A DNA stretch of 64,000 bases from Dehalococcoidia bacterium (GTDB taxonomy: Bacteria; Chloroflexota; Dehalococcoidia; UBA2979): the NCBI GenBank assembly GCA_965208885.1, contig CBDBPS010000002.1:1879538-1943537 (forward strand). Direction: 5' to 3'. Of this stretch, positions 37,674-62,773 are shown in pieces. Below the pieces are notes generated by a model. The model searched no databases, was not told where the DNA came from, and saw only the letters and a list, made by a program, of their open reading frames with translations. Each line of letters opens with the position of its first letter. Positions within the stretch are counted from its first letter, which is position 1. A program made the translations under genes and the position numbers.

Positions 37674-37713
37674 GCGCAGTTTGACACAACTGGCCGCCGC
37701 GCGCTAGGTTGGT

Positions 37714-37737: not shown

Positions 37738-37767
37738 GTGCGCAAGTGGTTCAGAGGAGGATCCGCG

Positions 37768-42111: not shown

Positions 42112-42977
42112 GACTGAACCTCGTTACTGGGAGCAAGCCGTGCGCTGTTCACACGGAGATTCCAACGCGAGACGATCCGGCCTTCCCTCGGGCCAGCAGG
42201 ATCGAGCCAACTCAGCCCGCGAGTGATCCGACTGTGACATGCGCCGATGAAGCTAGCGTCCGCAAGCTGCTCTCGCTCCGCCAGGTACCCGAGGCGCTTG
42301 AAGACGGTCCCGCGGCCCAGCCGGTCGCCGTACTGCAGGAGACGTGCTGGATCGGCACCGGCACTCTCGAAGTACGTGGTGAGGACTTCGGAGGCATGCA
42401 GCGCACCTCCCGCCGCACCCGGCACGTCGAGAACATCGATGATGGTGCGGTGTGGGTCGGACACATCGACAGCCACCTGTCGGCGCCAGACACGCCGCGT
42501 GCCGAACAGCGCCTCCCTGGGCACGCTCCGAATGGTGAAGTCCGTACCCTGAACCAACTGTCGAGTAGGCGTGACCTTCTTTCCAGCGACGACGTAGATG
42601 ACGCTGAAGATCTGGTCCGTCAGCCCCCAGTGCTCTGCGGCGCTCCAACCTCCGATGTAACCTGGACTGAACAGGGTTGCGGCCACGATCCATGGATCTT
42701 CTCGCCACTCGCTCGGCTCGGAGGCCTCAAGCGGGACTGCGATGTACCAGCCTGGGCGCACACGCGAGAGCCAGCCGCCAGCAGCGAGCGCCGCGAGCAG
42801 ACGGCGCGTGGGTCCGATCGCCGTACCGAGCACCGACGCTGCCTGAGTGGCGTTGAACGGACCAGGGAACCTCCGATGAAGCACGGCCAGCTGCGCTCGC
42901 CGCCGACGCCCGAGGCCGGCTGCCAAGCTGTCCTCGCGGTACATCGTGACTCGATTGTCTTCTGTGAGACTGGACAC
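42108..42977 (-). CDS. abiEi: AbiEi-family antitoxin / transcriptional regulator.
   Basis: The 289-aa protein lies immediately upstream of, and overlaps, the AbiEii gene. Its length and position are typical of AbiEi. The N-terminal winged-helix-like region reads LHRRFPGPFNATQAASVLGTAIGPTRRLLAALAAGGWL. Confidence 0.65.
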   Translation of the reverse strand: MSSLTEDNRVTMYREDSLAAGLGRRRRAQLAVLHRRFPGPFNATQAASVLGTAIGPTRRLLAALAAGGWLSRVRPGWYIAVPLEASEPSEWREDPWIVAATLFSPGYIGGWSAAEHWGLTDQIFSVIYVVAGKKVTPTRQLVQGTDFTIRSVPREALFGTRRVWRRQVAVDVSDPHRTIIDVLDVPGAAGGALHASEVLTTYFESAGADPARLLQYGDRLGRGTVFKRLGYLAEREQLADASFIGACHSRITRGLSWLDPAGPREGRIVSRWNLRVNSARLAPSNEVQS

Positions 42978-43246
42978 TTTGCCCTCGCAATGTAGGTCAG
43001 TATATCAGAGGACGTGACTTTTCTTCCATAGAGTGAACTGTGGACTTTCAGTATACCGAGGCCCTCCTCCAGAACAGCGACCCGAGATCCCGACGCTCAC
43101 CGCGAACGAGCTCGAATCCGGTAAGGATGCCGCCCACGGCGCTCTTCCGGCTCACCCCAGGAACTCCGGGCCAAGACATCGGCGAGGCTGTGCTGGAATG
43201 TCGGTACTTATTGACATCGTCCGACGTATCAAAGCACTATCGGGCC

Positions 43247-43849
43247 ATGAGCAAAGCGGGCACGGAAGAGATCCTCGACCTCGTGCGAGAGGCCGGGCTG
43301 GTACGTCCGCGCGACCTCGAGTCGGCCGGCGTTCCGGGAGGCTCCCTCGCGCAACTGGCGCAGAGAGGTCTGCTGGAGAGGCTCGGCCGTGGCCTGTATG
43401 CGGTGCCCGGTGCCGCACCAAGTGAGCACCGCTCGCTCGCGGAGGTCTCGAAGCGGACGCCACGAGGGGTAGTCTGCCTGCTCTCGGCAGTGCGCTTTCA
43501 CGGACTCACTACCCAGGCGCCGGCCGAGGTCTGGCTGGCGATCGGGCCAAAGGATCGGGCCCCGAGGGAGCACAGCGTGCACCTGCGGATCGTGCGCGCC
43601 TCGGGCGAGGCGCGCGATGCAGGCGTCGAGACACATGTCGTCGAGGGCGTGCCTGTCCGCGTCTACGGTGCGGCGAAGACCGTGGCGGACTGCTTCAAGT
43701 TCAGGAACCAGATTGGCACCGACATCGCTGTCGAGGCGCTGCGCGACTGCCTCGAACAGCGCCGCTGCACCGCCGACGAACTCTTCGAATACGCTCGCGT
43801 CTGCCGCGTCTCGCGCGTGATGCGCCCCTACTTGGAGGCACTCGCATGA
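43247..43849 (+). CDS. Orphan AbiEi-like antitoxin domain protein with no downstream toxin gene. The ORF is open from 43040.
   Basis: EEILDLVREAGLVRPRDLESAGVPGGSLAQLAQRGLLERLGRGLYA is typical of the AbiEi_4 N-terminal domain. Downstream there is only a short ORF and then small conserved ORF copy 2. Confidence 0.6.
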   Translation: MSKAGTEEILDLVREAGLVRPRDLESAGVPGGSLAQLAQRGLLERLGRGLYAVPGAAPSEHRSLAEVSKRTPRGVVCLLSAVRFHGLTTQAPAEVWLAIGPKDRAPREHSVHLRIVRASGEARDAGVETHVVEGVPVRVYGAAKTVADCFKFRNQIGTDIAVEALRDCLEQRRCTADELFEYARVCRVSRVMRPYLEALA

Positions 43850-44463: not shown

Positions 44464-45885
44464 CTACATGATCAGGTGGTCGAATTTCTCCTTGAGGAAC
44501 CCGAACGTCTCATCCCTTTTCCGCGCTTCAACCAACTGCCGGAGGTCATCATCGTCCAAGAAAATGATGAATCCTCGGTCATCGCTCGCCGTGTCTCGGA
44601 GACGACTCTGGAGTAGCTCGCGGTTTTCCACGGTCCGGACCGCCAGAATCCCAAATTGTCCTCGGTTCGGTGAGAATCGGCCCGCAAGTTGGTCGACTTC
44701 CGGATTGGCAGGATCGGCGGAGTAGTTCTTGCATTCGATAAACACATGCTGACTCGGGTAGTTGTTCCCCAGCCATCGGAAGAAGCCTTGCTCGGCGATG
44801 TTCGCATAGGAAATGTCGATTCGCTTGCGGCCACTATGCAGTCGTTCCTCGATTCGAGGGAACGAGAGGGCTGGATAAAAAACCGCCGTGAGAAGGGCCT
44901 CCACTGAACGATGATATCGGTCCGAGCATTCCGGGCCGGGCGGGAGCGAAGTCACCGCCTGCAGTAGGGTGTCCCAGTCGGGCGTATCGACGCCGACATA
45001 AGCAGCCACCCCCTCGTGATTCAACGGAGGTGTGATTCGCCCTGCCTTGGACGCCCGATACGTCTCGAGAAGCTCTGGGGTTTCGAGGGTGAAATCTATC
45101 GCTACCTGCTTCCCCTGGCCATACTTCTTGATTAGGTCTGACTTCGTGACGTGCGGCACTTTGCCTACGAGTCGGACTAGTTCTGTGGTTGCCTCAAGCT
45201 CCCGTGCTTGCAACGCCGGGAGAATGAAGTGCCGATAGTACTCACCGACATCGAAGTCCATTCGTCGGCGAACAATCGACTTCGGTACCAATAGGAGTCG
45301 TCTGTTATCGACGATTGGCAGGTCCACGTAGTCCTCGAACCATTCCTCGGCCTGCGGATCCCACATGGGACCTGAGGCGACACCGCTAGTGACCGGGATC
45401 CCATACCATTCGGATGCTTCTTGTGTGTACCGGATGAGGGGTTGGCGGATGACGTTCGTTGCGATATCAGAAACGATGTCGCTCGCGACACCCGGTACCA
45501 TCAGGACAGTGTCCTCTAGATCTTGGAGAAGGCCGCTCTTGGCTGCCTCACTGTCCTTTAGGGCATTCCCCACATCCCGCGCGGACTGGCTCCCGAGTCC
45601 GCGTCCCCTCGCTTGACCCGTCGAGAACCCGAGATGGGTTTCGTTCGGCTCTCGCAACATTCGTAGCAGCCCGACCGCAGTCTCATCATCCCCCTCGTGT
45701 ATCGAGCGAAGAACTCGGCGAAAGAAGTCCTGTATCAGGGCGACGCACTCCTGGCCCCACGGTGTGTTGAAGCGGCGAAGTGCACGGGGATCCACGAAGA
45801 TCCGCACATCGGTGGCTAGATCAACGTCAACAAAATCAACCTCTGGCTGCGTCTTCGCTAGACCAAAGTGAGCAGTGACGCGCAA
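44464..45885 (-). CDS. Hypothetical 473-aa protein with a putative C-terminal PD-(D/E)xK nuclease motif.
   Basis: A TTG start is preceded by GAGGGG. The C-terminal RKRIDISYANIA ... HVFIECKNY fits a D...ExK restriction-endonuclease-like core. No other family is recognised. Confidence 0.45.
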   Translation of the reverse strand: MRVTAHFGLAKTQPEVDFVDVDLATDVRIFVDPRALRRFNTPWGQECVALIQDFFRRVLRSIHEGDDETAVGLLRMLREPNETHLGFSTGQARGRGLGSQSARDVGNALKDSEAAKSGLLQDLEDTVLMVPGVASDIVSDIATNVIRQPLIRYTQEASEWYGIPVTSGVASGPMWDPQAEEWFEDYVDLPIVDNRRLLLVPKSIVRRRMDFDVGEYYRHFILPALQARELEATTELVRLVGKVPHVTKSDLIKKYGQGKQVAIDFTLETPELLETYRASKAGRITPPLNHEGVAAYVGVDTPDWDTLLQAVTSLPPGPECSDRYHRSVEALLTAVFYPALSFPRIEERLHSGRKRIDISYANIAEQGFFRWLGNNYPSQHVFIECKNYSADPANPEVDQLAGRFSPNRGQFGILAVRTVENRELLQSRLRDTASDDRGFIIFLDDDDLRQLVEARKRDETFGFLKEKFDHLIM

Positions 45886-46104
45886 GGTCCCCTCGTTTCC
45901 TCCGATTCGTCAGATTGCAGGCAACGGTCTGCTGCCGCGGTCATCCCGGCGAGTGCGGTGAGAGGATTGTACGTGATGTGCCCACACTGTAGCTGAGGCG
46001 GAGAGCGCGTCAGGCTCTTCGTTCACGTTGGGGACTGTGACCGTCACAGACGCGCCGATCACGCCACCCAAGGCTTCCTAGAGGCGTTCACGGTGAGCAT
46101 GGGG

Positions 46105-46963
46105 CTAGCTGTCCTTCCCACGAACGTTGTTTACAGGCGTGAGGCGGGGACAGCCCCGCCGATGCCGCCGTGTGGCCGGCGAGCATTGTAGCGGTAGAGC
46201 CAGCGCGGGAGCTGGTGCAGCCGCTCGGCGTTGGAGCGGTAGGGGCGGGTCTAGCCCACTCGTTCTGCAGGATCTGGATGAAGCGCTCGGCCTTCCCGTT
46301 TGTTTGCGGGCGGTAGGGCCGGGTGTGACGCAGTTCCACCCCTGCGGCGGCGGCCACGCCGCGGAAGCCGCGCGCCACGGTGTAGGCCTTCGCGTTGTCC
46401 GTGAGCACGCGCCTGACGCGCACGCCGCGCCTGACGCGCACGCCGCGGCGTGCGAACGCCGCGAGCGCCTGCTTGAGGAAAGCGGCGCAGCTGGCGCCGC
46501 GCTCGTCGGGCAGCACGTCGACGTAGGCGTAGCGGCTGTGGTCGTCGACGGCGACATGCAGGTAGTCGAGGCTGCGCGTGCGCGGGGTTGCCGCGGAGCG
46601 CCCGCGCACGCAGTGTCCGCCGCCGTCGGGGATGCGGCCCAGCTTCTCCAGTTCCGGCGAGGTGCGGCGCGGATTCGAGCGCGGAGCGGAGGCGCGGTCC
46701 TCGAGTCCGGCGGCGCCTTCCTCGCGGTAGAGCCGCCACCACCTGGCGACCGTGGGGGGAGACCCGGAAGCGCCGGGTAACCTCGGCCTGGGGGTAGCCG
46801 GCTTCGACCTCCCTGACCATCTCCCGCCGGGTCACCGGCGTCAAACGCGCGTTAGGATGTGCCACGAGAGGCTCCTCTCCTGCTACTGGTGCGTTCGTTT
46901 CACACACACAGCAGCAGGCGGAGCCCCTCACCTGTCAACAACCTACGTGGGAACTACACCTAG
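46105..46963 (-). mobile_element. IS481-family insertion sequence relic (~0.85 kb) with imperfect terminal inverted repeats and a frameshifted, internally deleted DDE transposase.
   Basis: TIRs are CTAGGTGTAGTTCCCACGTAGGTTGTTGACAG (46932-46963, rc) and CTAGCTGTCCTTCCCACGAACGTTGTTTACAG (46105-46136). The N-terminal HTH begins VAHPNARLTPVTRREMVREVEAGYPQAEV. The rve core reads DYLHVAVDDHSRYAYVDVL...VLTDNAKAY...RPYRPQTNGKAERFIQILQNEW. The C-terminal LYRYNARRPHGGIGG lies in a third frame. An 18-nt tandem duplication cgcctgacgcgcacgccg occurs at ~46411-46446. Confidence 0.7.
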
Positions 46964-47156: not shown

Positions 47157-48386
47157 ATGACTACCTACACGCCGGCGTCGTCTCTTGGCTGGCTCGATCT
47201 CGATCCAGCGGCAAGTGAGCGAGTGACCACGCTGCTCCGCTCGCTCGACGAGCCCGGAACTCTCGACGTGCTGGGCTTGGGCACGATACGCGATGCGTTC
47301 TCGGCGATGCTCAGCCCCGGCACCTCGACCGTCCAGACCAGGCTCCGGTATTTCATCTTCTTGCCCTGGATACTGGGTCGCGTCGAAGCCCAGGGAGTCC
47401 CTCCAACCGATTTCACCCGCAGACTCCGTGAGGACGAGGCGCGACTGATCGACTGCCTGCGCCACCTGGGGCCAGGACAGGGGGTCATCGGCTACAACGC
47501 CGGCAGAGAACTCAGGCGCATGCCCAGCGAGATCTACTGGGTCGGTTTAGGCTCCTGGGGTCTGAGGCGGCATGACTTGAGCATCGCCGAGTACGGGCAA
47601 CGGGCTGCTGCTATCGGGAGGCTCCGGCCCGAGCGCGACGACGACGGCGAAGCGACTAGGCGGGTCGTATCAACGTGGGCTCCACTCCCTCAACCTCCAG
47701 CTGACTTCCTGCAGAGCGACATCACCTTCGAGCTTCGTGCCGAGGAGGCGCAGGTCCTTATCGACCACATCCGGCGGCACCACACGGGTACGCTACTGGC
47801 CGTCTTGTGCGGTATGCCAGCTGCTGTGAAGGATGCCGACTATCCGTGGGAAGTCCCGACGGGCGGGCTGCCGGATCACCTCGTTGAACTCCTTCACCAC
47901 GCCCGATGCTTCTCCGAGCTGACTCTTGGGCCGCAACTTGTCTACAACGTCCTCCTCGCGCGTAAGGCGAGCGAGGAGCTTGATTGGGAAACCCACGAGC
48001 TCGAAGAGGGACAACTCAGCCAGCTCGAAACCTGGGGCCAGCTGGTTGGAGACCGGCACGAGGAGTTGCAGTCGTGGGTCGAAGACCTCCCTGAGTTCTG
48101 GCACGTCGTAGCAGACCAGGGCGTCAGCGCACAAACCCAGGACTTCGTCGCAACTGTGGTTAGACGCGCCGTCGCCAATCCCCTCGGCTTCGCCGACGAT
48201 TCCGTCGTTCACAAGCGCATCCGCGACCGGGAGCTCAAGCTGAAGTCGAAGCGAGCTCGACTGGCCCACCGGACTGCGCTTGAGAACTGGAGCCAGGCAC
48301 CAGTCGGTGGTCAGTTCGACTATCGGTGGTCAATCACCAAGAGCTACCTCGCAGACATTGCCAAGGCGTTGGAGGAGGGAGCCTGA
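47157..48386 (+). CDS. Hypothetical 409-aa protein, first gene of a three-gene coupled operon.
   Basis: The ATG at 47157 begins MTTYTPASSLGWLDL. The stop overlaps the next ATG (TGATG). No known motif recognised. Confidence 0.5.
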   Translation: MTTYTPASSLGWLDLDPAASERVTTLLRSLDEPGTLDVLGLGTIRDAFSAMLSPGTSTVQTRLRYFIFLPWILGRVEAQGVPPTDFTRRLREDEARLIDCLRHLGPGQGVIGYNAGRELRRMPSEIYWVGLGSWGLRRHDLSIAEYGQRAAAIGRLRPERDDDGEATRRVVSTWAPLPQPPADFLQSDITFELRAEEAQVLIDHIRRHHTGTLLAVLCGMPAAVKDADYPWEVPTGGLPDHLVELLHHARCFSELTLGPQLVYNVLLARKASEELDWETHELEEGQLSQLETWGQLVGDRHEELQSWVEDLPEFWHVVADQGVSAQTQDFVATVVRRAVANPLGFADDSVVHKRIRDRELKLKSKRARLAHRTALENWSQAPVGGQFDYRWSITKSYLADIAKALEEGA

Positions 48387-50203
48387 TGCTCCAGCCCACA
48401 AATCGCCTCACACTGATTGACGCGCTGAGGCCCCCGGCCGCATTCCGTTTGGAGTCGGCCATGGCGGTGACATTCACGCTTGATCTACAGGCGCTCTTGG
48501 CGGCGCCCTTTGCGTTGGCGCACTCAGGGGCCGAAGGAATCGTTTCCGATGGAAGCCAATACGAACCCATCGAGTTGCTTCACGCACTTCGGTCCAACGC
48601 AAACAGAATCAGCGTGTTCAACCAGGTCGGCGAGATCGCCTTGCCGCCCTCACGGCGAGTGTTCGCCTTCCTCGAGCAGGCGGTCGTGCCCGTTCGCGCT
48701 CCGCTCGGCGGTATCGTCCACCCCAAGATCTGGGTGCTTCGATACGAGACCGCTGCTGAGCCACCGGTGGGTCAGCAACGGGAGCGGCGTCTAAGGGTGC
48801 TCATCTCCAGCCGGAATCTCACGTTCGATCCGAGCTGGGACACTGTGGTCCGTCTAGACGAAGCAACCGATGAGAAGGCTGCATCGCTGGAACCTGTCGG
48901 GGAACTGTTTGAGGGGCTGCTCGGCACCGCGGTTGGCACCGTCACCACGGTCCACCAGGACCGCGTGAAGTTGCTCTCCGCCGCGCTAGAGTCTACGAGT
49001 TTCGCCTTACCCGCCGGTGTAGAGGAGCTGCGAGCGCATGTAATGGGCCTGACCTCCACAACTTCACCACTTCCGGCCACCGCCGAAAGGTCATTGATCG
49101 TCTCGCCATTCGTCAGCGATGACTTCTTTACCAGAGTCCATCCGTCGCCGGTAAATGAGCTCGTGAGCAGGCCGGAACAGCTCGACCACCTTGAGCAGGC
49201 GACGCTCGATAAGATGCAGACCCAACCTTACGCTTTTGACGACGTTAGCTTGGCCGCCCTCGAAGGAGGGGAGGAACAAACATCGCTCTATGGTCCTGGC
49301 CGGCCTCTGGTAGGGCTACACGCCAAGATATTCGCCTTCGAGAGTGATGGTCGAGCCCGCCTGTTCCTTGGGTCGGCCAACGCCACCGGTGCGGCGTTCA
49401 GCAGAAATATCGAAGTTTTGCTAGAACTCGTCGGCTCCAAAGAGATGCTCGGCATCGCCCGGCTCTTCGATGGCAACGGCGACGAGCCGGGACTCCGCGA
49501 CTTGTTCGTACCATATCACCGGCGAGAAGATCGCGATCAAGAGAACGGAACGGCAACGGTTGACAGCGCTAGACGCGCCATCGCTCAACTTCACTTCGAG
49601 GGCGTTGTCGAGGAGAGCGGGACCGGATGGGCGGTGACTTACCGGTCGCGGGAACCGGTGAGCGCTCCGGATGGCACGGTGATCCGCTGCTGGCCACTGG
49701 CATCTGCTGGGAACCGGCGACGGGTTGCTCTGGATGAACGGCTGGATGTTCGATTCGAGACCACCCTGGAAGCCATCAGTGGGTTCCTCGCGTTCGAGAT
49801 CACGCACAGAGATGGCGAGGACGCACGGACCGGATTCGTCGTCCCGGTCCCACTCGCCGGAATCCCAGAGAATCGTGACCGGATCCTGTTGCGCTCTCTT
49901 GTGGGTAACGCCGAGCGCTTTTTTCGGTACTTGCTGGCGATACTGGACGACGATCCGGATCAGATGAGTCTGATCGATGCTCTGGAAACCGACGGTATGG
50001 ACTCTGTAGCCTCTGGAAGCGGATTTACGAACTTGCCGGTGTTGGAGAAGTTGCTCAGAACCATGCGACGAGAACCGACGAAGCTTGCCGGACTCCATCC
50101 ACTCGTCTCTGACCTGGCTGCCGATGACGCGCTTCCGTCAGGTTTCGCTGAACTCTGGATGGCTATCTACGACGAGGCACACCGACGCGGTCCAGCACAG
50201 TGA
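48386..50203 (+). CDS. Phospholipase D-superfamily (two HKD motifs) putative nuclease.
   Basis: A GGAGGAGGGA SD precedes the start. HKD motif 1 reads VHPKIWVLRYE...ISSRNLT. HKD motif 2 reads LHAKIFAFESDGRARLFLGSANATGAAF. The stop overlaps the GTG of the helicase gene (GTGA). Confidence 0.7.
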   Translation: MLQPTNRLTLIDALRPPAAFRLESAMAVTFTLDLQALLAAPFALAHSGAEGIVSDGSQYEPIELLHALRSNANRISVFNQVGEIALPPSRRVFAFLEQAVVPVRAPLGGIVHPKIWVLRYETAAEPPVGQQRERRLRVLISSRNLTFDPSWDTVVRLDEATDEKAASLEPVGELFEGLLGTAVGTVTTVHQDRVKLLSAALESTSFALPAGVEELRAHVMGLTSTTSPLPATAERSLIVSPFVSDDFFTRVHPSPVNELVSRPEQLDHLEQATLDKMQTQPYAFDDVSLAALEGGEEQTSLYGPGRPLVGLHAKIFAFESDGRARLFLGSANATGAAFSRNIEVLLELVGSKEMLGIARLFDGNGDEPGLRDLFVPYHRREDRDQENGTATVDSARRAIAQLHFEGVVEESGTGWAVTYRSREPVSAPDGTVIRCWPLASAGNRRRVALDERLDVRFETTLEAISGFLAFEITHRDGEDARTGFVVPVPLAGIPENRDRILLRSLVGNAERFFRYLLAILDDDPDQMSLIDALETDGMDSVASGSGFTNLPVLEKLLRTMRREPTKLAGLHPLVSDLAADDALPSGFAELWMAIYDEAHRRGPAQ

Positions 50204-53200
50204 CGGGACTGCGCATCGATGTAGGGGCGGTCCTAGCTGACCTGAAGGACTTCCAGAGGCGAACCGCCCGTTGGGCGTTCCAGCGGATGTTCGATGAGCA
50301 GGATCCTGCAATCCGATTCCTGGTCGCTGACGAGGTCGGGCTGGGGAAAACGCATGTCGCCCGAGGAATAGTTGCTCTGGCTATCGACCACCTTCGGCGG
50401 ACGGGCGACACACGATATGACATTGTCTACGTCTGCTCCAACGCGGCGATCGCGCGCCAGAACCTTCGCAAACTTGTGCCAGAAGGAATCGAGCCGCTCG
50501 AGGACATCGAACGACTCACCATGCTGCCTCTCGCAAAACTGAATAGCGGTGACGACCAGCATATGGGTGTAAACCTTCTCGCGATCACACCAGGGACGTC
50601 GCTGCAGTTCGGTCGTAGCACGGGCCGGTTCCGCGAGCGCTGCATAGCGTACGCGTTCTTGCGGGCCTGTTGGAGTGCGGAAGTGATGAACGCACCGGCT
50701 CGTCGGATCTTCTGGCACGGCGTCACGGCCAACGACCCCGACGAGCGGCTGCGCTCGGAGGAGCGACGGTACCGGTCGGAAATAAGGGAGTCACTCGGAG
50801 AGTTCGAAGCAATGCTGGAAGAGGTCGAACAGTCGCGCCGCGCCGACGGACGACCGGCGCTACGTGAACTCTTTGAGGGTCTGGCCCACGGATTGGCGTG
50901 GAAGCGCACGTTCCCAGACGACTTGTACGAAGACCGCAGAGAATTGATTGGTGAGGTTCGCCGCATCATGGCGAGAGTTGGCATCGCCAAGCTCCAACCG
51001 GATCTCGTGATATTGGACGAGTTCCAACGGTACAAGGACGTGCTCCGAATGGCTCCCAAGAACTTCGCTGTGGAGTTGGGGCAACGCTTGCTGAACCACA
51101 CGGACCCGCAGACTGGGCGCGCGACGCGAACGCTGCTTCTGTCCGCTACCCCATACCGCCTGTACACGACTGGCGATCGGGCAGGTGACGACCACTACGA
51201 AGACTTCTTTGATACTTGCTCGTTCCTTCTCAGGGATCCCGCGAGGGTTAACTGGCTGCGGGATCAGTTTCGTGCCCTCCGCCTGGCACTCACGTCCAAG
51301 GAGTCACTCTCAAACGCCGAGGGGGTCTGCCGCGCCATCGGCACCGAGCTGAGCAGCGTAATGGCACGAACGGAGCGGCTGGCGGCTACGCCAGACCGTG
51401 ACGGGATGCTTCACGAACCGGACACTCCAGTGGAGGTGAAACCGCTTGACCTGCGCGCCTATCGTCGCCTCGGGAATCTTGCGGAGGCGGTCGACCACCA
51501 CGAACCGACCGAATACTGGAAGTCCGCGCCGTATCTCGTCAACTTCATGGAGCGGTACAAGCTCAAGGAGGCCGTGGTGCAGTCCGCAGGCGACGGCCGA
51601 TTCAAGGACGGAGAAGGGCTTAGTCCAGGTCCTGGACTGCTGAACTGGGACGATGTCGAGGCCTACGAGGACGTTGATCCCCAGAACGGGCGACTTCGCT
51701 GGCTGCTCAGCGACTTGGATCGCCACCGTGCATTCGAATTGCTCTGGATACCTCCCTCGATGCGGTACTACGACACTGGATCGGTGTACGAAACCCCGGA
51801 AGCAGCCAGCTTTACGAAGCGGCTGATCTTCTCCGGGTGGAGAGTCGTCCCGAAGGTGGTATCCTCGCTCGTCAGCTTCGAGGCCGAACGCCGCGCCTTC
51901 GCCGGACGCAATCACGACTACACGGCAGACTATCGGCGGCGTGGTGGCCAACGTCTCACCTTCCGTACGAGCGAGCGCACTGCCGGCCAACTCCGACACG
52001 GAGAATCGGCCAGAGTCCGCCGAGCAGCCGGAATGACCACGTTTCTCTTGATCTGGCCGAGTCCGAGTCTTGCGGAGCTGGGAGACCCCCGACCGCTAGT
52101 GTCCGGCGCATACCGCCCTGTGTCTGAGATGCTCGCCGACGTGGCGGGTCGAATCTCGGACGCCATCGAACCGCTGGTTCAGAGCGCACCAACTGATGGC
52201 GCCGTCGACCAGAGGTGGTACTGGGCCGCGCCCCTGCACCTCGACCGAGAGGCTTACCTGTCGGTAACGGATCGCTTGCTTTCCCAGGGTGGCCTCATAC
52301 AGTCGGGAGGGGACGAATCCGATCGTGGACTCCGCGCCCACGTTGCCGAGGCAAATTCCATGCTATCGCGCGGTGCCCGGGCTCTCGGTCGCCCACCCGA
52401 TGACCTCAGCGAGGTTCTCGCTGAGTTGGCAATCGGAGGGCCGGCGCAATGCGCGCTGCGGGCGATCAGTTCAGTCACTCAGTTGCCGATCGCTGACGAA
52501 TCCACCGTGTTGAACGCCGCGCGGGTCGGTGCCGCGTTCAGGAGATTCTTCAACGCCCCGGAAGTCACGGGGCTCATAGTAGGTGGGCGTCCAGGGGAAC
52601 CGGACGTCGACGAAGGCGCAGGCCGCTACTGGCGCGATGTCATTCGACACTCGATCGGCGGCAATCTGCAGGCCGTTCTCGATGAACACACCCATGTGGT
52701 CCGTGACTGGCTCGGATATCTTCGTTTGGGCGACGATGACCGGCGCGCGCAGGCGGCCAACGACATCGCTCTGACCGTCGCGGACGCCTTGGACCTCCGC
52801 ACTTCATCGTTTCGCGTGGACATCCCCCGTAGTGGGCAAGGCGAACGCAACATGGATCTGGAAGAACGTCGGATGCGGACCCGTTTCGCCGTTTCATTTG
52901 GCAATCAAACACTCGACGAGGGCGGCGAGGCCCGAATCGAATCTGTGTACAGAGCGTTCAACTCGCCGTTCTGGCCCTTCGTCCTCGCCTCCACTTCTAT
53001 CGGACAGGAGGGGTTGGACTTCCACCTCTGGTGTCACGCCGTCGTCCACTGGAACCTTCCTACCAACCCAGTCGACCTGGAGCAGCGCGAGGGGCGCGTT
53101 CACAGGTACAAGGGTCACGCCGTCCGCCGCAACATCGCCGCGACCTTGGCGCCGGACCTGCTTGAAGGTGCGCTGGCTGGTGTCGCCGATCCTTGGAGTC

Positions 53201-53487
53201 AGCTATTCGCCATGGCAGTGCCCACTAGGCCAGAGGCCGCCGGCGAAATGGTGCCTTACTGGGTGTTCCCCAGGGGTCCGGCGCGGATCGAACGCCACGT
53301 GCCGGTCATGCCCTTCAGCCGAGATGCAGCGACTCTGCCACGGTTGCGCAAGTCACTCGCTGCATATCGCCTTGCGTTCGGCCAACCCCGGCAGGCCGAG
53401 TTGATTGAGTTTCTCGGGGCCGAGCGCTCCGACAGTGACCTGCTGCAACTGGCCTCACGGCTCCGCATTGAACTCTCACCCCCCTGA
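50200..53487 (+). CDS. SNF2-like superfamily-2 helicase/ATPase (1095 aa).
   Basis: Motif I reads FLVADEVGLGKTHVA, compared with SNF2 ILADEMGLGKT. Motif II reads LVILDEFQRYK. Motifs V-VI read SIGQEGLDFHLWCHAVVHWNLPTNPVDLEQREGRVHRYKGH. Confidence 0.75.
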   Translation: MTGLRIDVGAVLADLKDFQRRTARWAFQRMFDEQDPAIRFLVADEVGLGKTHVARGIVALAIDHLRRTGDTRYDIVYVCSNAAIARQNLRKLVPEGIEPLEDIERLTMLPLAKLNSGDDQHMGVNLLAITPGTSLQFGRSTGRFRERCIAYAFLRACWSAEVMNAPARRIFWHGVTANDPDERLRSEERRYRSEIRESLGEFEAMLEEVEQSRRADGRPALRELFEGLAHGLAWKRTFPDDLYEDRRELIGEVRRIMARVGIAKLQPDLVILDEFQRYKDVLRMAPKNFAVELGQRLLNHTDPQTGRATRTLLLSATPYRLYTTGDRAGDDHYEDFFDTCSFLLRDPARVNWLRDQFRALRLALTSKESLSNAEGVCRAIGTELSSVMARTERLAATPDRDGMLHEPDTPVEVKPLDLRAYRRLGNLAEAVDHHEPTEYWKSAPYLVNFMERYKLKEAVVQSAGDGRFKDGEGLSPGPGLLNWDDVEAYEDVDPQNGRLRWLLSDLDRHRAFELLWIPPSMRYYDTGSVYETPEAASFTKRLIFSGWRVVPKVVSSLVSFEAERRAFAGRNHDYTADYRRRGGQRLTFRTSERTAGQLRHGESARVRRAAGMTTFLLIWPSPSLAELGDPRPLVSGAYRPVSEMLADVAGRISDAIEPLVQSAPTDGAVDQRWYWAAPLHLDREAYLSVTDRLLSQGGLIQSGGDESDRGLRAHVAEANSMLSRGARALGRPPDDLSEVLAELAIGGPAQCALRAISSVTQLPIADESTVLNAARVGAAFRRFFNAPEVTGLIVGGRPGEPDVDEGAGRYWRDVIRHSIGGNLQAVLDEHTHVVRDWLGYLRLGDDDRRAQAANDIALTVADALDLRTSSFRVDIPRSGQGERNMDLEERRMRTRFAVSFGNQTLDEGGEARIESVYRAFNSPFWPFVLASTSIGQEGLDFHLWCHAVVHWNLPTNPVDLEQREGRVHRYKGHAVRRNIAATLAPDLLEGALAGVADPWSQLFAMAVPTRPEAAGEMVPYWVFPRGPARIERHVPVMPFSRDAATLPRLRKSLAAYRLAFGQPRQAELIEFLGAERSDSDLLQLASRLRIELSPP

Positions 53488-54048: not shown

Positions 54049-54360
54049 CTACCCCAGCGGCCGTGTCAGGGCGCTCGCTGCAACGGCGAGCTTGACCGCG
54101 CGCGCAGTGCCGACCAGTTCACGAGGCCGCGCTCCGAGGCGATCATTGCGCGAGAAGCCGAACTCGTCGAGGCAGAGCAGGCCGAGCCGGCCGTTGCAGG
54201 CGACCACGCGCGAGAGCATGCGCTCCTCGGCGGCCTCGGCGAGCTCGTTCACGAGCTGTGCCGCCGTCGTGTAGCGCACGCGCAGCCCGCGCTGGCAGGC
54301 GGCCATGCCGAGGCCGATCAGCAGATGCGACTTACCGGTGCCGCTGTCGCCGAGCAGCAC
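54049..54360 (-). pseudogene. IS21-family IstB helper ATPase fragment.
   Basis: Walker A reads LLGDSGTGKSHLLIGL and Walker B reads LLCLDEFGF. Both termini are missing. No istA was found. Confidence 0.6.
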
Positions 54361-54959: not shown

Positions 54960-56120
54960 GTGAGTCTGCCGAAACGCCCCGCAACGCTCGCCGAACTCCG
55001 GGAGAGTCTCACCGCCGGGGTTCTGCAGGAAGGTCGGCATCTCGAGTTCAAGCGCGAACTCCCGTCGAACAAGGACATCGCGCGGCAGTGCGCGGCACTG
55101 GCGGTCCAGGGCGGCGTTCTCGTGTTCGGTGTAGATGAGTCAGAAGCCGGACTTGTCGTCGCCCCGATCGAGTATGCGGGCGTCCGTGAGAAAGTCGGGC
55201 AAATAGCCCGGGACAGGTCGGTGCCACCCATCGAGTTGGACTCGTCGGTGCTGCATTCCGACGAGGCGGGCAGGGGCGTCGTTTGGATCGAGATTCCGCC
55301 ATCCCCGCACATGCTCCACCAGGTCGACGGGACGTACTACACGCGCGACGACGCGCGGACAAGGCCAATGTCAGACGCCGAGGTCGCTGATCGAATGGAG
55401 CTGCGCAAGGGGCGTCCGCGCTTGCTCGAGCAGGCACTCGAGCAAGCGCTGCGGAGACCGGAACCGGCAGCTGCGTCGCTGCATGCAAGGACCTGTATTG
55501 TCGCGCGGCCGGTCGGTGCCGCCTCCGACTTGCTCTTCGCAAAGACCAGGACGGCGGATGAGTGGGATGACTTCGCCTTCGAGCTCATGGTCCCGACAGG
55601 CCCGATCGTGATGCCCGCGCCGGTACGGGCCTGGGGCTTCATCAGCCATCAAGCCACGCCAGAGGGACCGAGTTGGGGCTCGCAGGCGATCATGTCGTAT
55701 CGCGACATCGCGTTCGAGAAGAACGGCGCACTCGCGCACCTCTCGTACAGCCGGGGGTTCGATCGCCGGAATGCGGATACGGTTCAGCCGTGGCTCGCGC
55801 TACAGGCTTGCATCGAAGTCATCGGGATCATCGGCGCCATCCAAGAGCGCACCAAGGAGGCCATGCCTTGGGACATCGCGATGTCGATCCGCGACGTGCG
55901 GGGTCACCTGGGGACATCGAGGCCGTGGTCTGGTCGCGGCCCGGTTCAGCAGCGGTTCCGGCCGACATTCCCGCGCGACGACTACACTGAGTATGCGCTT
56001 GGCGTGACTGGGCGACGGATAGAAGCGGACGGCGTTGCGCTTGTCGAGGAGCTGGCCGGTCAGTTCGTCTTGGAGTGTGGGCTGGACTTCGACACCGAAT
56101 ACCCTGGGCGAAGGACATAA
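54960..56120 (+). CDS. AlbA_2/Schlafen-like domain protein (putative DNA-binding/regulatory ATP-binding protein).
   Basis: GRHLEFKRELPSNKD...GGVLVFGV resembles the AlbA_2 (divergent AAA / Schlafen) signature E..E..LEFK...GG.l..GV. Confidence 0.4.
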   Translation: MSLPKRPATLAELRESLTAGVLQEGRHLEFKRELPSNKDIARQCAALAVQGGVLVFGVDESEAGLVVAPIEYAGVREKVGQIARDRSVPPIELDSSVLHSDEAGRGVVWIEIPPSPHMLHQVDGTYYTRDDARTRPMSDAEVADRMELRKGRPRLLEQALEQALRRPEPAAASLHARTCIVARPVGAASDLLFAKTRTADEWDDFAFELMVPTGPIVMPAPVRAWGFISHQATPEGPSWGSQAIMSYRDIAFEKNGALAHLSYSRGFDRRNADTVQPWLALQACIEVIGIIGAIQERTKEAMPWDIAMSIRDVRGHLGTSRPWSGRGPVQQRFRPTFPRDDYTEYALGVTGRRIEADGVALVEELAGQFVLECGLDFDTEYPGRRT

Positions 56121-56492
56121 GCAGGCTCAGACCAGAGGCCCACCCCGGACACACAAGATTCCTGCGGGACGGCTCGGAGGCAGGAGTGGCTCTCCTACGC
56201 ACCTCCGTAGTACCACGCGACCGGACCCCGGCCCGCGAGTTCGCCGCGCACATACAACGCCGGTATGCGCTCGGAGCGCCAGGCCCGGCCAGCATTAGAG
56301 AGGCCTCGGCACGAGGGGTTGAGGCTACGGGTAGCATTGGTCGTTCTGGATGCGGTAGTCCTCGGGTCGCCTCGTCTCCTGCGCCCCGAGCTCTCGAGGC
56401 GCGATCCCCGCGCGACCCGCGGGCGACCTAAGCTCCGATAGTACGGCTCCATATAGGAGGTTAGGTGGTAACATTCAGCAAGAGAGGTTGAT

Positions 56493-57764
56493 ATGGCTGG
56501 CTACGAGCGCCGACAGTGGCAGGGGAGCCCGACGGGGCAAACCTACCGCGACCGGCGGCCCTGCAACTACGACACATACCTGCCGGATCCCCTCGCCGGC
56601 CGCGACTTCGCGCTCTCGGGCGAGGTCACTGCGGATGTCGCCGCGGCCGAGGCCGCGCTCGTGCGCCTCGACGAATCGGCCACCGCGCTCGCCGGCGCCC
56701 GCTCCCTCGCCCGACTGATCCTGCGAGCCGAATCGGTCGCGTCGTCTCGCATCGAAGGATTGGTGGTCGGGGGTCGGCGGCTGCTCCGTGCCGATGCGGC
56801 GCGCCGTCTCGGCAATGACCCGCGGGATCGTACGGCCGAGGAGGTGCTGGCCAACATCGACGCAATGTCGATGGGCGTCGAGACCGTGGGGCCGGGCGAC
56901 CCGATTGAGCCGGCTGTCATGCTGGAGATGCACCGCCTGCTGCTCGCCGGCACGCCGCTTGAGGAGCACGGCGGGCGACTGCGAGACCAGCAGAACTGGA
57001 TCGGAGGCTCCGGGTACAACCCGTGCGCCGCGGCGTTCGTACCGCCACCCCCCGAGATCGTGGAGGACCTGTTCGATGACCTCTGCGCCTTCGCGAGCGC
57101 CGATGCGTGGCCACCGCTGGTCCAGGCAGCGATCACACACGCGCAGTTCGAGACCATTCACCCGTTTGTGGACGGCAACGGGCGTGTGGGCCGTGCCCTG
57201 ATCCATCTGGTGCTGCGGCGCCGCGGCCTCGGGCTCCGCGTCCAGCCGCCCATCTCGCTGGTGCTGGCGACATGGTCTTCGGCCTACGTGGCCGGCCTGA
57301 CCGCGACGCGCTACGTCGGGCCGTCCGATAGCGCCGAGGCGCGCGACGGCTTCGACCGCTGGGTGGAGCTCGCCGCCGAAGCCTGCCTGCGTGCCGCGGG
57401 AGACGCTGCGCGCTTCGAGGAGCGGGTGCGGGCGCTCCAGGCGAAATGGATCGAGCGAGCCGGACCCGCGCGGCGTGACTCGGCGCTCCGCCTGCTCATC
57501 GACACGCTCCCGGAGGCACCCGTCCTGACCACGTCCGTCGCCGCGGATCTCATCGGCCGCTCGCTGCGGGCGACGACCCAGGCGATGGACCAGCTGGTGC
57601 GCGCGGGGATCCTGGTCCAGATCACGGTTGGCCGCCGCAACCGCGCGTTCGAGGCGCCGGAGCTCATCGAGGCGTTCACGGCATTCGAGCGAGGCCTCGC
57701 GAGCCCGGAGGGCAACACGGCCATCGCGGATCCCTCACGCCCGGTGCCCCAGCGGCCGAACTGA
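56493..57764 (+). CDS. Fic/Doc-family protein (AMPylase-type, with a C-terminal winged helix).
   Basis: The canonical Fic motif HPFVDGNGRVGRAL is present. The ATG is preceded by AGAGAGG. Confidence 0.85.
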   Translation: MAGYERRQWQGSPTGQTYRDRRPCNYDTYLPDPLAGRDFALSGEVTADVAAAEAALVRLDESATALAGARSLARLILRAESVASSRIEGLVVGGRRLLRADAARRLGNDPRDRTAEEVLANIDAMSMGVETVGPGDPIEPAVMLEMHRLLLAGTPLEEHGGRLRDQQNWIGGSGYNPCAAAFVPPPPEIVEDLFDDLCAFASADAWPPLVQAAITHAQFETIHPFVDGNGRVGRALIHLVLRRRGLGLRVQPPISLVLATWSSAYVAGLTATRYVGPSDSAEARDGFDRWVELAAEACLRAAGDAARFEERVRALQAKWIERAGPARRDSALRLLIDTLPEAPVLTTSVAADLIGRSLRATTQAMDQLVRAGILVQITVGRRNRAFEAPELIEAFTAFERGLASPEGNTAIADPSRPVPQRPN

Positions 57765-58144: not shown

Positions 58145-61100
58145 TCAACACTCAGATTCGTTATGGGTTTGCGCCGAGGCGCGCTCGTTTCCTTGGGCAT
58201 CGCTTGAGATCCCTGCCTGGGTCCTGATCTCGTCCAACGAAGCGATCCGGCGCCACACGTTTGAGTAGCCCTCATACGCGGTGCTGAGCCACTCGGGGCG
58301 ATCCACCGAGTAGTCAGCGAACCACACGTCCCGCTCGCCCCAGACGATCCAGACGACCTCATAGTCGTGCGCAGCGCAGTAGTCTCGGATCAGGTCCTCC
58401 CGCAAGTAGAGGAGGTGACCCGCCTCCTTGAAGTCCGACGGTGGCGCGAGCGTCACTGAGGCTCTGCGGCCTTCGGGGTCGCACCAATCTAGGCTCGCCG
58501 GCATCACACGGAGGTCCAAAGTCTCGGCGAAAGTAACCGCTGGTACCGGGTAACCTCCAGCCTCGTTCGTCACCGAGTGATAGGACTCCCATCCATAGTA
58601 ATGAGCTGGCCGCTCGATGACGACCTCATTCTCCTCTGTGGCACCAAGGGCTTCGGTGTAGATTTCCTGAAGCCTGTCACCGGGCAGGCCGAGTCGTGCA
58701 CAGTGACTCCACGTCATTTCTCCAGCGAAGACATAGTGGGCCTCGGGCAGACGGAGGGCCCAGAAACTTCCAGGGTGCTGTTGGGAAGAGAGAACCTCCC
58801 TGAGTTGATGCTCGCGACCGCGTTCGACGAGAACCGCCCTCAAGAAGCCATGGATCCTCCGTTGCGATTCGATGTCCTCCTGCCGGAGGTATCCGGACAG
58901 AGCCACCCAAGGACCGTCAGATCCATCGAGCGAGTGGGGTCGCAGTAACTCATCTGAGATATCCACCCTGCCATTGATTACCCAACTCTCCAAGTCCTCG
59001 GACTCTTCTGACAGGAACTCGGGGATCTCCAGCGTGAGCGCTGGAGGCTTCGCTGGGAAGGATGGGTCAATATCGACGTCTGTAAGGTGTACCTCACCAT
59101 CCCTTATTGGCGAGCGGCCTTCGGCAATGAGCCTGCCTGCCGCCTCAAAGAACCCGACCCAGCCGTATTTCTTCTGGTACAGCTCGATGTGGCCGTCGCG
59201 ACCACGCCGATACTCACGGTCATCCCTCATACGCCGATCAACTTCAGCAAACCGCTCGGTGCTCCAACCCAGGTCCCAGACTCGGGCCCGAATCCAGGAT
59301 GACACCTCCTCATACTCGGGGTGGTCGAATTGGTAATTGCCTCGGTGCGGCACTAGCCTTCCCACCGTGTAGTTCCGAAAATCGAGCCCGTAGACGAGAT
59401 CACGGGGCGAGTTCCTGGGATCGTCACGAGTAATGGACTCTAGCTTGTCGGCACGACTGAAGCGCCACTCGCCTGAATGGGACCCGAGCGCGTCAGGATA
59501 GTAGCGGCGAGTTATGCCGGCGATTCCTTCGACGTAGTGTCGTATCAGCCAGTGATCCGTCGGATGGGTAGCATCCTCGGCACAGAATGCCTTCCAGAGA
59601 CCCTCGATGAAATCGTCCAGCTCTTGGCCGAACTCCCGTTGCTCTCCGGGAGCCGCCATCATGACGCCGAACGAGGCGGCGAGCATGCGTTCGGGGACGT
59701 ACGGGTCGTTCGTATTCAGGCTGGACAGCGTAAGTGCGAAGAGCGCTCCAGGCTCTCCCCGCCCGTACCAGTACATAGCCAGGGTAGCGACATCTCGGAG
59801 ATCGCGTACTGTGCTCGTCAAAAGCCACTTGAGCCAGAGGGCGCACAACCGATCTCCGTCGGTGCGCTCTGCACTGGACTCCCAACTCTCGATGAGTTCT
59901 TGAAGATCCTTGAAGTGCTCCGCGTCGGAGTTCCGGATCCACTCAGTCCAACGCAGATCGCGGTCGGCGACGGACAAGCCCGAGAGTAGGTCATCGACGA
60001 ACTCGGCGTTGAGAGGATGATTGCCTGCGTCTCGGACCTCGCGGAGGCGGTATAGCAGGTCTCGCCTTCGAATCCGGGCTCGACCGTCAGATTGATGCCG
60101 GAGGGAGAGTCGGGCGATTTCAGCAACCGTTCGCTCGTCCAAGAACTGACCTTCAAGGTCCGCGGAGTCGACGATTGCTTCTTCGCGAAGATCCCCACCT
60201 ACGAGTTCCCAGAACTGCATCCCGGGGTACCTTCGAGGAACCAGTCCGGCGAATGCCTCCCGAATGTCCGGCGCTAGAGGGTGGGCTTCCTGCCTGTGCC
60301 GTCGCTGCAAGCGCTCACGCAGTGGATGCGGGATGAGTCGTGTGCCGAACCTCCGGATAAGTGAAGTGAATGAGCCCCCTCCGCCCTGTTTGGCCCCCAA
60401 GCGTGCCGCAGTCTTCTTTTCACGAACCCACGGGGCGAAATCACCACGGCCCCGTGACCTGACCAGCGCGTCCGCGATTAGGAAGCCGGCGAACCCGTCG
60501 AACAGGATCACCGTTCGAGCATCGCTGCCAGAGTCGAGGTCCACACCGAGGACGCCCTCGTCACGTAGCGCCCGCGCGAGGCTATAGGGCCAGTCCTCAG
60601 CGTTTTCGCCTATCAAGTTGCGAATCTCGTCGAATGGCATTGCTCGACGGTTCGTGTTCCAAAGCGCCAAAGCGATCGTGTCTAGCGTCTTGAGGATGTC
60701 TGGTTCGTAGCGACGTACCCCGCTTCGTGTGTTCGCGATCCGCCTTACAGTATTCCTTCGGAATTCAATGAATGCGGCCGTGAGCGAGGCTGGCACTCGG
60801 TCAGGAGCTACTCGGGAATCGCGCGTTGGGTTCGTTGCTTCGCAGAAGATTCTGAGGAATAGTGGGTCACTAAACTGCTCCATGGGGAGGCGTACGTTAC
60901 CGCGATCGATCTTGTATTCGTCAAAGTAGGCTTCGACCGCATCCTCCCTCAGAGTGCGACTGAAGCCCTGGACTTCCAACTTCGCAAAACCATCTGGCAG
61001 CGCGATCTGAGCCACCGCCGGCCTGAGTGTCACAATCAGGACGACGTGATGAAGACCTCGTAGTATCGGTTCGATTCGAGACAACTCCTCCTTCCAGCTG

Positions 61101-62365: not shown

Positions 62366-62773
62366 CTACGGTCGGGGTGGGCCCTCGTCCGGGTAATGAT
62401 GCGCTGAGTACACCTCCACGCGGGCGGGACTGTCGATCATGAATCTCAGGAAGCCGCTCACGGTCGACTCATCAGTTGATATCCGCAGTTCATCGTCCAC
62501 GCGTCGCACTGTATGTTCCGAGCTGAGGCTCTCGATGTCCTCAGGGGAGAAGTTGTACAAGCCAAGTTTCCTGAGGTTCTCGACCAACGGATCATTGAGG
62601 TACCACGCCATCGGGTTCTCGTGGAACCTGTCGTAGTCATAATTCTCGACGACGAGCTCACAGAGCTCTTCCAGCTGCCTCCTCACGGACTCAGCCTTCT
62701 CAGCAGTTTCGAAGTGGCCAATCATCCTCAAGTTGGCCGAGTGCTCCGAGCCGAACCCTGTCCAGACCTTCAT
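62366..62773 (-). CDS. Hypothetical ~135-aa protein between the radical SAM and NTPase genes. The likely start is the ATG overlapping the upstream stop (ATGA).
   Basis: MKVWTGFGSEHSANLRMIGHFETAEK... The ORF is open from 62872, but the ATG at ~62773 overlaps the radical SAM stop. It ends 6 nt before the NTPase start. Confidence 0.45.
   Translation of the reverse strand: MKVWTGFGSEHSANLRMIGHFETAEKAESVRRQLEELCELVVENYDYDRFHENPMAWYLNDPLVENLRKLGLYNFSPEDIESLSSEHTVRRVDDELRISTDESTVSGFLRFMIDSPARVEVYSAHHYPDEGPPRP

Follow-up and report, generated by a model that had tools for sequence, protein, structure and literature searches.

Which defence system, if any, is encoded by three closely packed genes in the 64,000-nucleotide stretch of Dehalococcoidia DNA analysed here (the window)? 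A sequence-only reading had described them as a coupled cassette of an unknown 409-aa protein, a PLD nuclease with two motifs and a large SNF2-like helicase, and had judged that it was not obviously any named defence system. The sequence features were confirmed and that judgement was wrong. The cassette is very probably an Azaca (ZacABC) operon for defence against phages, zacA-zacB-zacC, of canonical form and apparently intact. Azaca is a system that is already catalogued; the cassette is real, not new.

Layout of the operon

The ORF list and our reading of the sequence give three adjacent ORFs on one strand, arranged as one operon (Table 1), in line with the Azaca rule of PADLOC and DefenseFinder, which we take to be the three core genes. 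At the zacA/zacB junction, the TGA at 48384-48386 shares its A with the ATG at 48386-48388, giving TGATG with a 1-base overlap. At the zacB/zacC junction, the GTG at 50200-50202 and the TGA at 50201-50203 form GTGA with a 4-base overlap. Both overlaps, as well as a Shine-Dalgarno sequence before gene 2, had been proposed from the letters and are present. The mechanically called ORF for gene 2 (48326-50203, forward strand) starts with GTG and encodes 625 aa. Because the ATG of TGATG lies 6 nt after GGAGGAGGG, we took zacB to be the shorter ORF from 48386, and alignments with ZacB homologues begin at the first residue encoded from there. Neither frameshifts nor internal stops were found in zacA, zacB and zacC. 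The three genes are contiguous and translationally coupled.

Table 1. Positions of the zac genes and of sequence features within them, numbered along the window
Feature	Position	Strand	Description
zacA	47157..48386	+	ATG start; 409 aa; DUF6361 protein; Azaca subunit without known biochemical activity
Shine-Dalgarno-like GGAGGAGGG	48371..48379	+	Within the end of zacA, 6 nt before the ATG of zacB; read from sequence
zacB	48386..50203	+	605 aa; PLD-family nuclease carrying two HxK motifs; start ATG shares a base with the zacA stop (TGATG)
ZacB first PLD motif HPKIWVLR	48719..48742	+	Residues 112-119; no variation at H, P, K or W across 8 aligned homologues
ZacB second PLD motif HAKIFAFE	49319..49342	+	Residues 312-319; kept in all aligned homologues
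zacC	50200..53487	+	1095 aa; SF2 helicase/ATPase; starts with a GTG that overlaps the end of zacB (GTGA)
ZacC motif I / Walker A LVADEVGLGKTH	50320..50355	+	Residues 41-52, K50; identical in 8/8 aligned homologues
ZacC motif II / Walker B DEFQ	51016..51027	+	Residues 273-276; invariant in homologues and plasmid copies
ZacC motif VI QREGRVHR	53083..53106	+	Residues 962-969; invariant in homologues and plasmid copies

Identity of the three proteins

The PADLOC v2 profiles match all three proteins nearly end to end, in the protein as well as in the profile. The ZacA profile matches gene 1 with an E-value of 1.3e-103 (residues 8-406, profile positions 3-395 of 396), the ZacB profile matches gene 2 with 1e-141 and 472 bits (residues 1-597, profile positions 1-580 of 586), and the ZacC profile matches gene 3 with an E-value of 0 and 1019.9 bits (residues 7-1094, profile positions 5-1016 of 1019). 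Profile matches at E-values of 1e-103 to 0, together with a TGATG junction kept in 10/10 loci, are well beyond chance. The sequence-only reading had itself raised the possibility that the triad was already catalogued, and these matches show that it is. It had also considered that gene 1 might match DrmB/DUF1998, which is not the case. Gene 1 is a DUF6361 protein: Pfam DUF6361 (PF19888), the ZacA domain, matches it over its full length (residues 8-404) at 1.3e-54, with 186 bits where the cut-off is 25.

Azaca was reportedly described by Millman et al. in Cell Host & Microbe in 2022, an attribution that comes from secondary citations. A citing paper lists Azaca among the PLD-containing systems of Millman et al. 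2022, and the name Azaca is absent from the preprint of that work (10.1101/2022.05.11.491447). An enrichment of Azaca in Actinobacteria is also reported.

ZacA has 582 homologues in the protein collection, and the matches listed are 64-80% identical and all carry PF19888. Its N-terminal peptide is conserved, and its exact sequence is not on record in public assemblies. The AF2 model of ZacA is all-helical (pLDDT 78, pTM 0.79). A fold search with it gave no informative match to solved structures, and the predicted structure adds nothing on mechanism. A PDB sequence search with ZacA, ZacB and ZacC found no relative with a solved structure.

ZacB belongs to the PLD-family nucleases and has two HxK motifs, like the ZacB of Azaca. 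Pfam PLDc_2 matches it weakly, at residues 311-361. The motif HPKIWVLR is followed by SSRNLT and the motif HAKIFAFE by GSANAT. The two motifs had been read as HKD motifs. They are both present as given, but they have the forms HxKx4R and HxKx4E, and neither has the canonical D four residues past the K. The ZacB motifs are HxK...(S/G)SxN variants of HKD. H112/K114 and H312/K314 are kept in all ZacB homologues aligned, and the first motif reads HPKTWVLR in the Halomarina plasmid copy and HPKIWVLR in the Cronobacter plasmid copy.

The third protein is identified as ZacC by its PADLOC match and its invariant helicase motifs. ADEVGLGKTH is at residues 43-52 and SAT at residues 315-317. GLGKT, DEFQ, SAT and QREGRVHR are invariant in the aligned ZacC homologues, and GLGKT is found in the plasmid copies as well. 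At E<=0.01, the only Pfam match on ZacC is Helicase_C (residues 915-970), and the SNF2 N-terminal ATPase lobe has no Pfam match at this threshold. Similarity of ZacC to DrmD, RapA and DpdE (residues ~876-979) and to BrxH (~895-979) is confined to the C-lobe. The earlier description of the helicase as SNF2-like therefore holds for the motifs ADEVGLGKTH, DEFQ and QREGRVHR but not for the Pfam model of the SNF2 N-lobe. Judged from its sequence, ZacC resembles SNF2 at the motif level only (DEVGLGKT, QREGRVHR).

Could the cassette be a degenerate or minimal DISARM-like locus, in which a DrmC-like PLD protein and a DrmD-like SNF2 helicase remain and the methyltransferase and DrmA/DrmB have been lost? 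We consider this extremely unlikely. ZacB has weak secondary matches to DrmC (best 17.8 bits in PADLOC, 21.3 bits in NCBIfam) and ZacC to DrmD (41 bits in PADLOC, 51.3 bits in NCBIfam). However, the NCBIfam equivalog cut-offs of 133 bits for DrmC and 610 bits for DrmD are both far from reached. The DrmC match covers only the HxK motif (~304-348) and the DrmD match only the helicase C-lobe (~895-979), whereas the Zac profiles are full-length on the same proteins with 472 bits (ZacB) and 1020 bits (ZacC). Gene 1 belongs to DUF6361 rather than DUF1998, and a Pfam scan of 23 ORFs in the 35-64 kb region gave no match to DrmA, DUF1998 or a methyltransferase. The annotations of two plasmid records also show the triad without DISARM partners; in the 10 genome loci, the check covered the Zac genes and the window neighbours. 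With the DrmC and DrmD thresholds missed and DrmA, DrmB (DUF1998) and a methyltransferase missing, membership in DISARM was rejected. Membership in Mokosh was rejected as well: PADLOC gave no Mko profile match at E<=0.01 and ZacC has motifs of the SF2 type. The scores and the lack of key components thus agree with the earlier claim that the cassette is neither of these systems. Dpd, the 7-deazaguanine DNA modification/restriction cluster, was also rejected, since DpdE scores 52.9 bits where the cut-off is 500, over the C-lobe only (906-973).

Conservation and genomic surroundings

The A-B-C order is kept in 10/10 related genome loci. The TGATG zacA/zacB junction is kept in the same 10/10, and the zacB/zacC junction is ATGA or GTGA in most of them. 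The closest copies, with 60-80% identity, come from MAGs of Acidimicrobiia, Chloroflexi and Pseudomonadales. The same triad, in this order and annotated as DUF6361 / phospholipase D / helicase, is carried by a Halomarina (haloarchaeal) plasmid and by Cronobacter IncFIB plasmids, in copies that are 31-40% identical to this one end to end and have the same motifs. We therefore did not find the lack of co-conservation that the sequence-only reading had named as a reason to give up its cassette. A conserved fourth gene was not found: 0 of 20 window neighbours recur in the 10 related loci, save one weak IstB match (locus L008). Because the triad, its overlaps and its catalytic motifs are kept and the flanking genes are not, the operon is a self-contained mobile module. 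In bacteria and archaea alike, zacA, zacB and zacC move jointly and independently of their neighbours, as a tight three-gene unit with conserved overlaps that has spread across bacterial phyla and into archaea.

In the window, the cassette is flanked by two IS remnants, an rve-integrase pseudogene (46088-46931) and an IstB fragment (54049-54360), and the expression signals of the cassette may be disturbed by these remnants on both sides. A promoter scan of 45.8-55 kb returned no promoter-like site, a sigma-70-specific result that carries little weight for a high-GC organism, and terminator-like sites in the same region were found in numbers at the shuffle level. One could regard the operon as a decaying remnant that is stranded between IS fragments and has lost expression or function. 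The flanking remnants and the empty promoter scan are compatible with this, and the split of zacC by an IS transposase in the related locus L004 indicates that the Azaca family does get inactivated. However, zacA, zacB and zacC are full length against profiles and homologues and have no frameshifts or internal stops, and no damage is seen in any catalytic motif or in either coupling junction, so that decay is very unlikely here and an intact Azaca operon is the preferred reading.

The defence-island context proposed earlier was borne out: AbiE, PDC-M36A, Avs2-like and pVip-like genes lie around the cassette. A tRNA scan for an integration site found none in the window. The less characterised genes of the island encode a DUF6791-ThiF protein, a DUF6375 and radical SAM pair, PDC-M36A, Schlafen and Fic. 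The 30 kb around the cassette form a dense defence island, and these less characterised genes are better targets for follow-up.

Predicted mechanism and comparison with known systems

The ZacABC systems of Bacillus (Bm) and Klebsiella (Kp) have been studied biochemically, and in them the three proteins act as one complex (bioRxiv 10.1101/2025.07.10.664194). Phage resistance has been demonstrated for these systems, and the purified complex cuts double-stranded phage DNA, T4 DNA by strong preference. Cleavage requires ZacA, ZacB and ZacC, an active PLD site in ZacB and the Walker A motif of ZacC; activity is lost in nuclease mutants and when the Walker A of BmZacC is mutated. In vitro, mutations at conserved positions of ZacA were without effect (bioRxiv 10.1101/2025.07.10.664194).

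Every predicted catalytic motif of ZacB and ZacC is intact in this copy, and we infer by analogy that it would cleave DNA by the same mechanism. Powered by ATP, ZacC would load onto invading DNA or move along it, and would license cutting by the two-HxK PLD nuclease ZacB. PLD enzymes need no metal and work via a phospho-histidine intermediate. ZacA, the DUF6361 protein, would be indispensable, in a structural or regulatory role. Self DNA would be spared because a phage-specific cue is absent from it. The cue may be a hypermodified base, in which case Azaca would act like an NTP-dependent type IV (modification-dependent) restriction system. This type IV-like reading fits the absence of any methyltransferase, and modification dependence of Azaca is suggested.

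An alternative is that Azaca acts by abortive infection, in which ZacABC, once triggered by infection, degrades DNA indiscriminately, the host's included, and the cell dies or is arrested. The cut site of BmAzaca, 5' A^NT, is very degenerate and lies throughout the T4 genome (bioRxiv 10.1101/2025.07.10.664194), and no modification gene nearby would mark self DNA. Hachiman and many other helicase-nuclease systems of defence are also described as degrading DNA non-selectively once activated. On the other hand, of the substrates in the panel, T4 dsDNA was cut by BmAzaca in vitro with a 'clear preference', no trigger being added, and protection against T4 was >1,000,000-fold (bioRxiv 10.1101/2025.07.10.664194). 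The preference argues for substrate discrimination, and protection of this size is typical of direct restriction. T4 DNA carries glucosyl-hydroxymethylcytosine, and glucosyl-hmC is offered in that preprint only as a 'possible molecular cue'. Abortive infection is therefore improbable, and direct restriction of phage DNA is the reading that we prefer.

PADLOC or DefenseFinder would label this cassette Azaca, and it should be removed from the candidates for new systems. Its value is modest and lies in annotation, as an intact Azaca is added to an uncultured high-GC lineage. The role of ZacA and what Azaca senses are questions for the whole family and are not particular to this locus.

In comparison with known Azaca, the cassette has the same gene order with DUF6361 first, overlapping genes, two HxK PLD motifs in ZacB, SF2 motifs I, II, III and VI in ZacC, no methyltransferase and a defence-island setting. 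Only the host lineage and the sequence divergence differ, and ZacC here is ~76 residues longer than the PADLOC ZacC profile. Azaca may functionally resemble the type IV systems McrBC and GmrSD in three respects: the lack of a cognate methyltransferase, an NTPase-driven nuclease and a preference for hypermodified T-even DNA. The folds are unrelated, being PLD and SF2 in Azaca, AAA+/PD-(D/E)xK in McrBC and DUF262/HNH in GmrSD. DISARM shares with the cassette a PLD-family protein and an SF2 helicase with SNF2-like motifs, as well as weak local profile similarity, but unlike the cassette it has no known DUF6361 partner. Mokosh (MkoA/MkoB, or the single-gene type II) is also made of a PLD nuclease and a helicase, which is an SF1, Upf1-like COG1112 enzyme. 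EcMokosh II cut only ssDNA, whereas Azaca cuts T4 dsDNA, and the 'nuclease-NTPase' class holds both Azaca (SF2) and Mokosh (SF1) (bioRxiv 10.1101/2025.07.10.664194).

Assignment of the cassette to Azaca

In the PADLOC-DB scan, the three genes of the cassette matched the ZacA, ZacB and ZacC profiles at full length: gene 1 matched ZacA (1.3e-103; residues 8-406 on positions 3-395 of 396), gene 2 ZacB (1e-141; residues 1-597 on positions 1-580 of 586) and gene 3 ZacC (E=0, 1019.9 bits; residues 7-1094 on positions 5-1016 of 1019). In Pfam, gene 1 falls in DUF6361 (1.3e-54), the domain given for ZacA in a bioRxiv preprint (10.1101/2025.07.10.664194). Because of these three matches and the DUF6361 assignment, the cassette is, by its profiles, Azaca (zacABC), a catalogued anti-phage defence system which several papers, as secondary citations, credit to Millman et al. 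2022. The sequence-only reading had described an unknown protein, a PLD nuclease and a helicase, and this make-up agrees with ZacA, ZacB and ZacC; its statement that the cassette is not obviously any named defence system is refuted. A match of gene 1 to DrmB/DUF1998 had also been considered, and Pfam gives DUF6361 instead. The exact ZacA sequence was absent from the public record in a look-up in public assemblies, and the closest relatives among the homologues listed from the protein collection were about 80% identical. Since the exact proteins are unrecorded and their nearest relatives stand at this distance, the locus is, as judged by homology, a new sequence of Azaca without architectural departure and not a new system; it reads as an intact, ordinary member of a defence system already catalogued.

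The three ORFs lie on one strand in the mechanical ORF list. The stop codon TGA of zacA (48384-48386) has one base in common with an ATG that begins at 48386, so that the junction read from the window (...GGAGGAGGGAGCCTGATGCTC...) contains the overlap TGATG, and a Shine-Dalgarno-like element, GGAGGAGGG, is located ahead of this ATG at 48371-48379. In tblastn of the related loci, the alignment of homologues with gene 2 begins at residue 1 from this ATG, so that gene 2 encodes 605 aa, not 625 aa. The zacB/zacC junction is GTGA (GTG 50200-50202, TGA 50201-50203). Both overlaps and the strong Shine-Dalgarno sequence claimed earlier are thus present in the window. The PLD and helicase motifs quoted before were also found in the translations, with ADEVGLGKTH, DEFQ, SAT and QREGRVHR in gene 3, and the catalytic motifs are invariant among the aligned homologues. 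The earlier observation is confirmed as written.

Profiles of other systems were weighed against this assignment. DrmC of DISARM matched gene 2 at 18-21 bits on the HxK motif only (NCBIfam cut-off 133). DrmD of DISARM and DpdE of Dpd matched gene 3 within 30-53 bits in the helicase C-lobe only (NCBIfam cut-offs 610 and 500), and RapA and BrxH fell within the same range, confined to the same lobe. The secondary DISARM-type matches are genuine yet marginal. Of the 23 ORFs that were scanned in the 35-64 kb stretch, none had a Pfam match to DUF1998, a methyltransferase or DrmA, and no Mokosh profile of PADLOC-DB matched the cassette proteins at E<=0.01. These results uphold the earlier view that the cassette is neither DISARM nor Mokosh.

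Conservation and mobility of zacABC

Relatives were sought with ZacA, one genome per species, which gave 10 loci in Acidimicrobiia or Candidatus Poriferisodalis MAGs, a Chloroflexi MAG (80% identity) and a Pseudomonadales MAG (65%). In tblastn with the three window proteins, the order ZacA-ZacB-ZacC was found in all of them, including L008, the closest related locus, where the contig edge cuts off inside the operon. The TGATG junction is likewise kept in 10/10 loci, and the zacB/zacC junction is ATGA or GTGA in most. In an Acidimicrobiales MAG (L004), zacC is broken near residue 887 by an insertion of about 1.3 kb (15805-17090) with a putative transposase gene, a 376-aa ORF on the strand opposite zacC that is DDE-transposase-like on reading its sequence; the insertion would make a natural Azaca knock-out on this chromosome.

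More distant copies are carried by 48 plasmid records (tblastn against plasmids). On a haloarchaeal Halomarina plasmid and a Cronobacter sakazakii IncFIB plasmid, the annotated regions hold the same triad with overlapping genes, labelled 'DUF6361 family protein / phospholipase D family protein / DEAD/DEAH box helicase or helicase-related protein'. Both copies align with the window proteins from end to end at 31-40% identity and retain HxK, GLGKT, DEFQ and QREGRVHR. The co-conservation of the three genes is therefore borne out. The 20 neighbouring window genes had no match in the ten genome loci except one weak IstB match in L008. Because the triad is conserved across loci and plasmids while its neighbours in the window do not recur, zacABC forms a self-contained, horizontally mobile module. 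ZacA identity is unusually high, 60-80%, across the ten loci, whose MAGs are assigned to three phyla (Acidimicrobiia, Chloroflexi, Pseudomonadales). Several of the hosts look sponge-associated, judging by names such as Candidatus Poriferisodalis and the SB06xx bins. This pattern would fit a recent spread of the module among organisms that share a habitat.

Surroundings of the cassette

The 35-64 kb stretch, with G+C below that of the window's first half, holds AbiE, PDC-M36A, Avs2-like and other defence-type genes (Table), which confirms the defence-island setting proposed earlier.

Table. Features of the cassette and of the rest of the window
Feature	Position	Strand	Details
Four giant ORFs for secreted proteins	6-35021		2160, 2604, 3503, 1984 aa
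Serine-recombinase gene	35344-36582	+	Recombinase and zinc-ribbon domains
DUF6791 + ThiF (E1-like) protein	within 36602-39166, possibly to 40479		408 aa; weak PADLOC CBASS-type E1-E2 matches
AbiEii with C-terminal WYL fusion, and AbiEi	40903-42977	-	PADLOC 1.6e-127 and 1e-76
Second AbiEi, divergent orientation	43040-43849	+	PADLOC 9.6e-82
PDC-M36A candidate-family protein	44464-45885	-	473 aa; PADLOC 5.5e-42
rve-integrase pseudogene, frameshifted	46088-46931	-	Pfam rve 1.7e-12; directly upstream of cassette
Gene 1 (zacA)	47157-48386	+	409 aa; ATG start; ORF list
Gene 2 (zacB), mechanical ORF	48326-50203	+	625 aa, counted from upstream GTG
Gene 2, first PLD motif	residues 112-119		HPKIWVLR, then SSRNLT; translation
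Gene 2, second PLD motif	residues 312-319		HAKIFAFE, then GSANAT; translation
Gene 3 (zacC)	50200-53487	+	1095 aa; GTG start; ORF list
IstB_IS21 ATPase fragment	54049-54360	-	Profile positions 96-169 of 238; directly downstream
Schlafen AlbA_2 protein, then Fic/DOC protein	54960-57764	+	386 aa; 423 aa
Avs2-like protein	58145-62359	-	1404 aa; Avs2 profiles 1.1e-96
DUF6375 + radical SAM, overlapping ORFs	62366-63672	-	DUF6375 3.3e-36

IS remnants flank the cassette on both sides, and the upstream integrase remnant looks IS481-like by eye. In L008, a weak IstB-like match (7151-7381) lies just ahead of zacA. The serine-recombinase gene is located where G+C begins to drop; the N-terminal resolvase catalytic domain was not detected in it, and it may be a truncated integrase at the island boundary. 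A divergent XRE-HTH/IrrE-M78 peptidase pair precedes the DUF6791-ThiF gene, and after this gene comes a 288-aa ORF that matched no family; the region is possibly an E1-based defence module of an uncharacterised kind. The second AbiEi has no recognisable AbiEii partner downstream, where the ORFs at 43.85-44.46 kb gave no Pfam match. No Pfam domain was found in the PDC-M36A protein, nor any Pfam match at E<=0.001 in the Avs2-like protein. The Schlafen gene, whose product had no PADLOC match, and the Fic/DOC gene are placed between Azaca and the Avs2-like gene. The radical SAM protein matched prokaryotic viperin (pVip) profiles weakly and partially (4.3e-16), and may be a viperin-like variant or serve unrelated radical SAM chemistry.

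The domains recognised in the giant ORFs of the first 35 kb are subtilase S8, P-domain, fibronectin III, cadherin-like, Big_9 and Calx-beta. In addition, PPDK_N (ATP-binding) occurs in one ORF and arylsulfotransferase in one. Adhesion repeats of this eukaryote-like kind are characteristic of symbionts that live in association with a host.

ZacA and the proposed mechanism

A PDB sequence search gave no relative of ZacA, ZacB or ZacC. The AlphaFold2 model of ZacA (57-sequence alignment; pLDDT 78, pTM 0.79) is all-helical, and residues 1-33 (window 47157-47255) are predicted to be disordered (pLDDT 30-46). Six invariant residues, S8, G11, W12, L13, D14 and D16, lie inside this disordered N-terminus, and the distant plasmid copies have a related S-W-(L/I) pattern N-terminally. 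Speculatively, the peptide may fold only upon docking to a partner.

According to the preprint (bioRxiv 10.1101/2025.07.10.664194), purified BmAzaca, the Bacillus orthologue, preferentially degrades T4 dsDNA from 10 nM at degenerate sites (5' A^NT) throughout the genome; cleavage needs ZacA, ZacB and ZacC jointly, is lost in mutants of either the PLD active site or Walker A of ZacC, and persists when conserved ZacA residues are mutated. Its authors raise the possibility that glucosyl-hydroxymethylcytosine is a cue. For the complex and its nuclease activity the source is the preprint; family membership and motif integrity come from the window. Since the residues corresponding to the orthologues' required sites are all intact in the window copy, ZacC may be an ATP-driven helicase that licenses the PLD nuclease ZacB on invading DNA. 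ZacA would be an obligatory non-catalytic subunit; this role, like the trigger, is inferred. In function, Azaca may be likened to NTP-dependent, modification-dependent restriction enzymes, and restriction of this kind would explain why the cassette has no methyltransferase.
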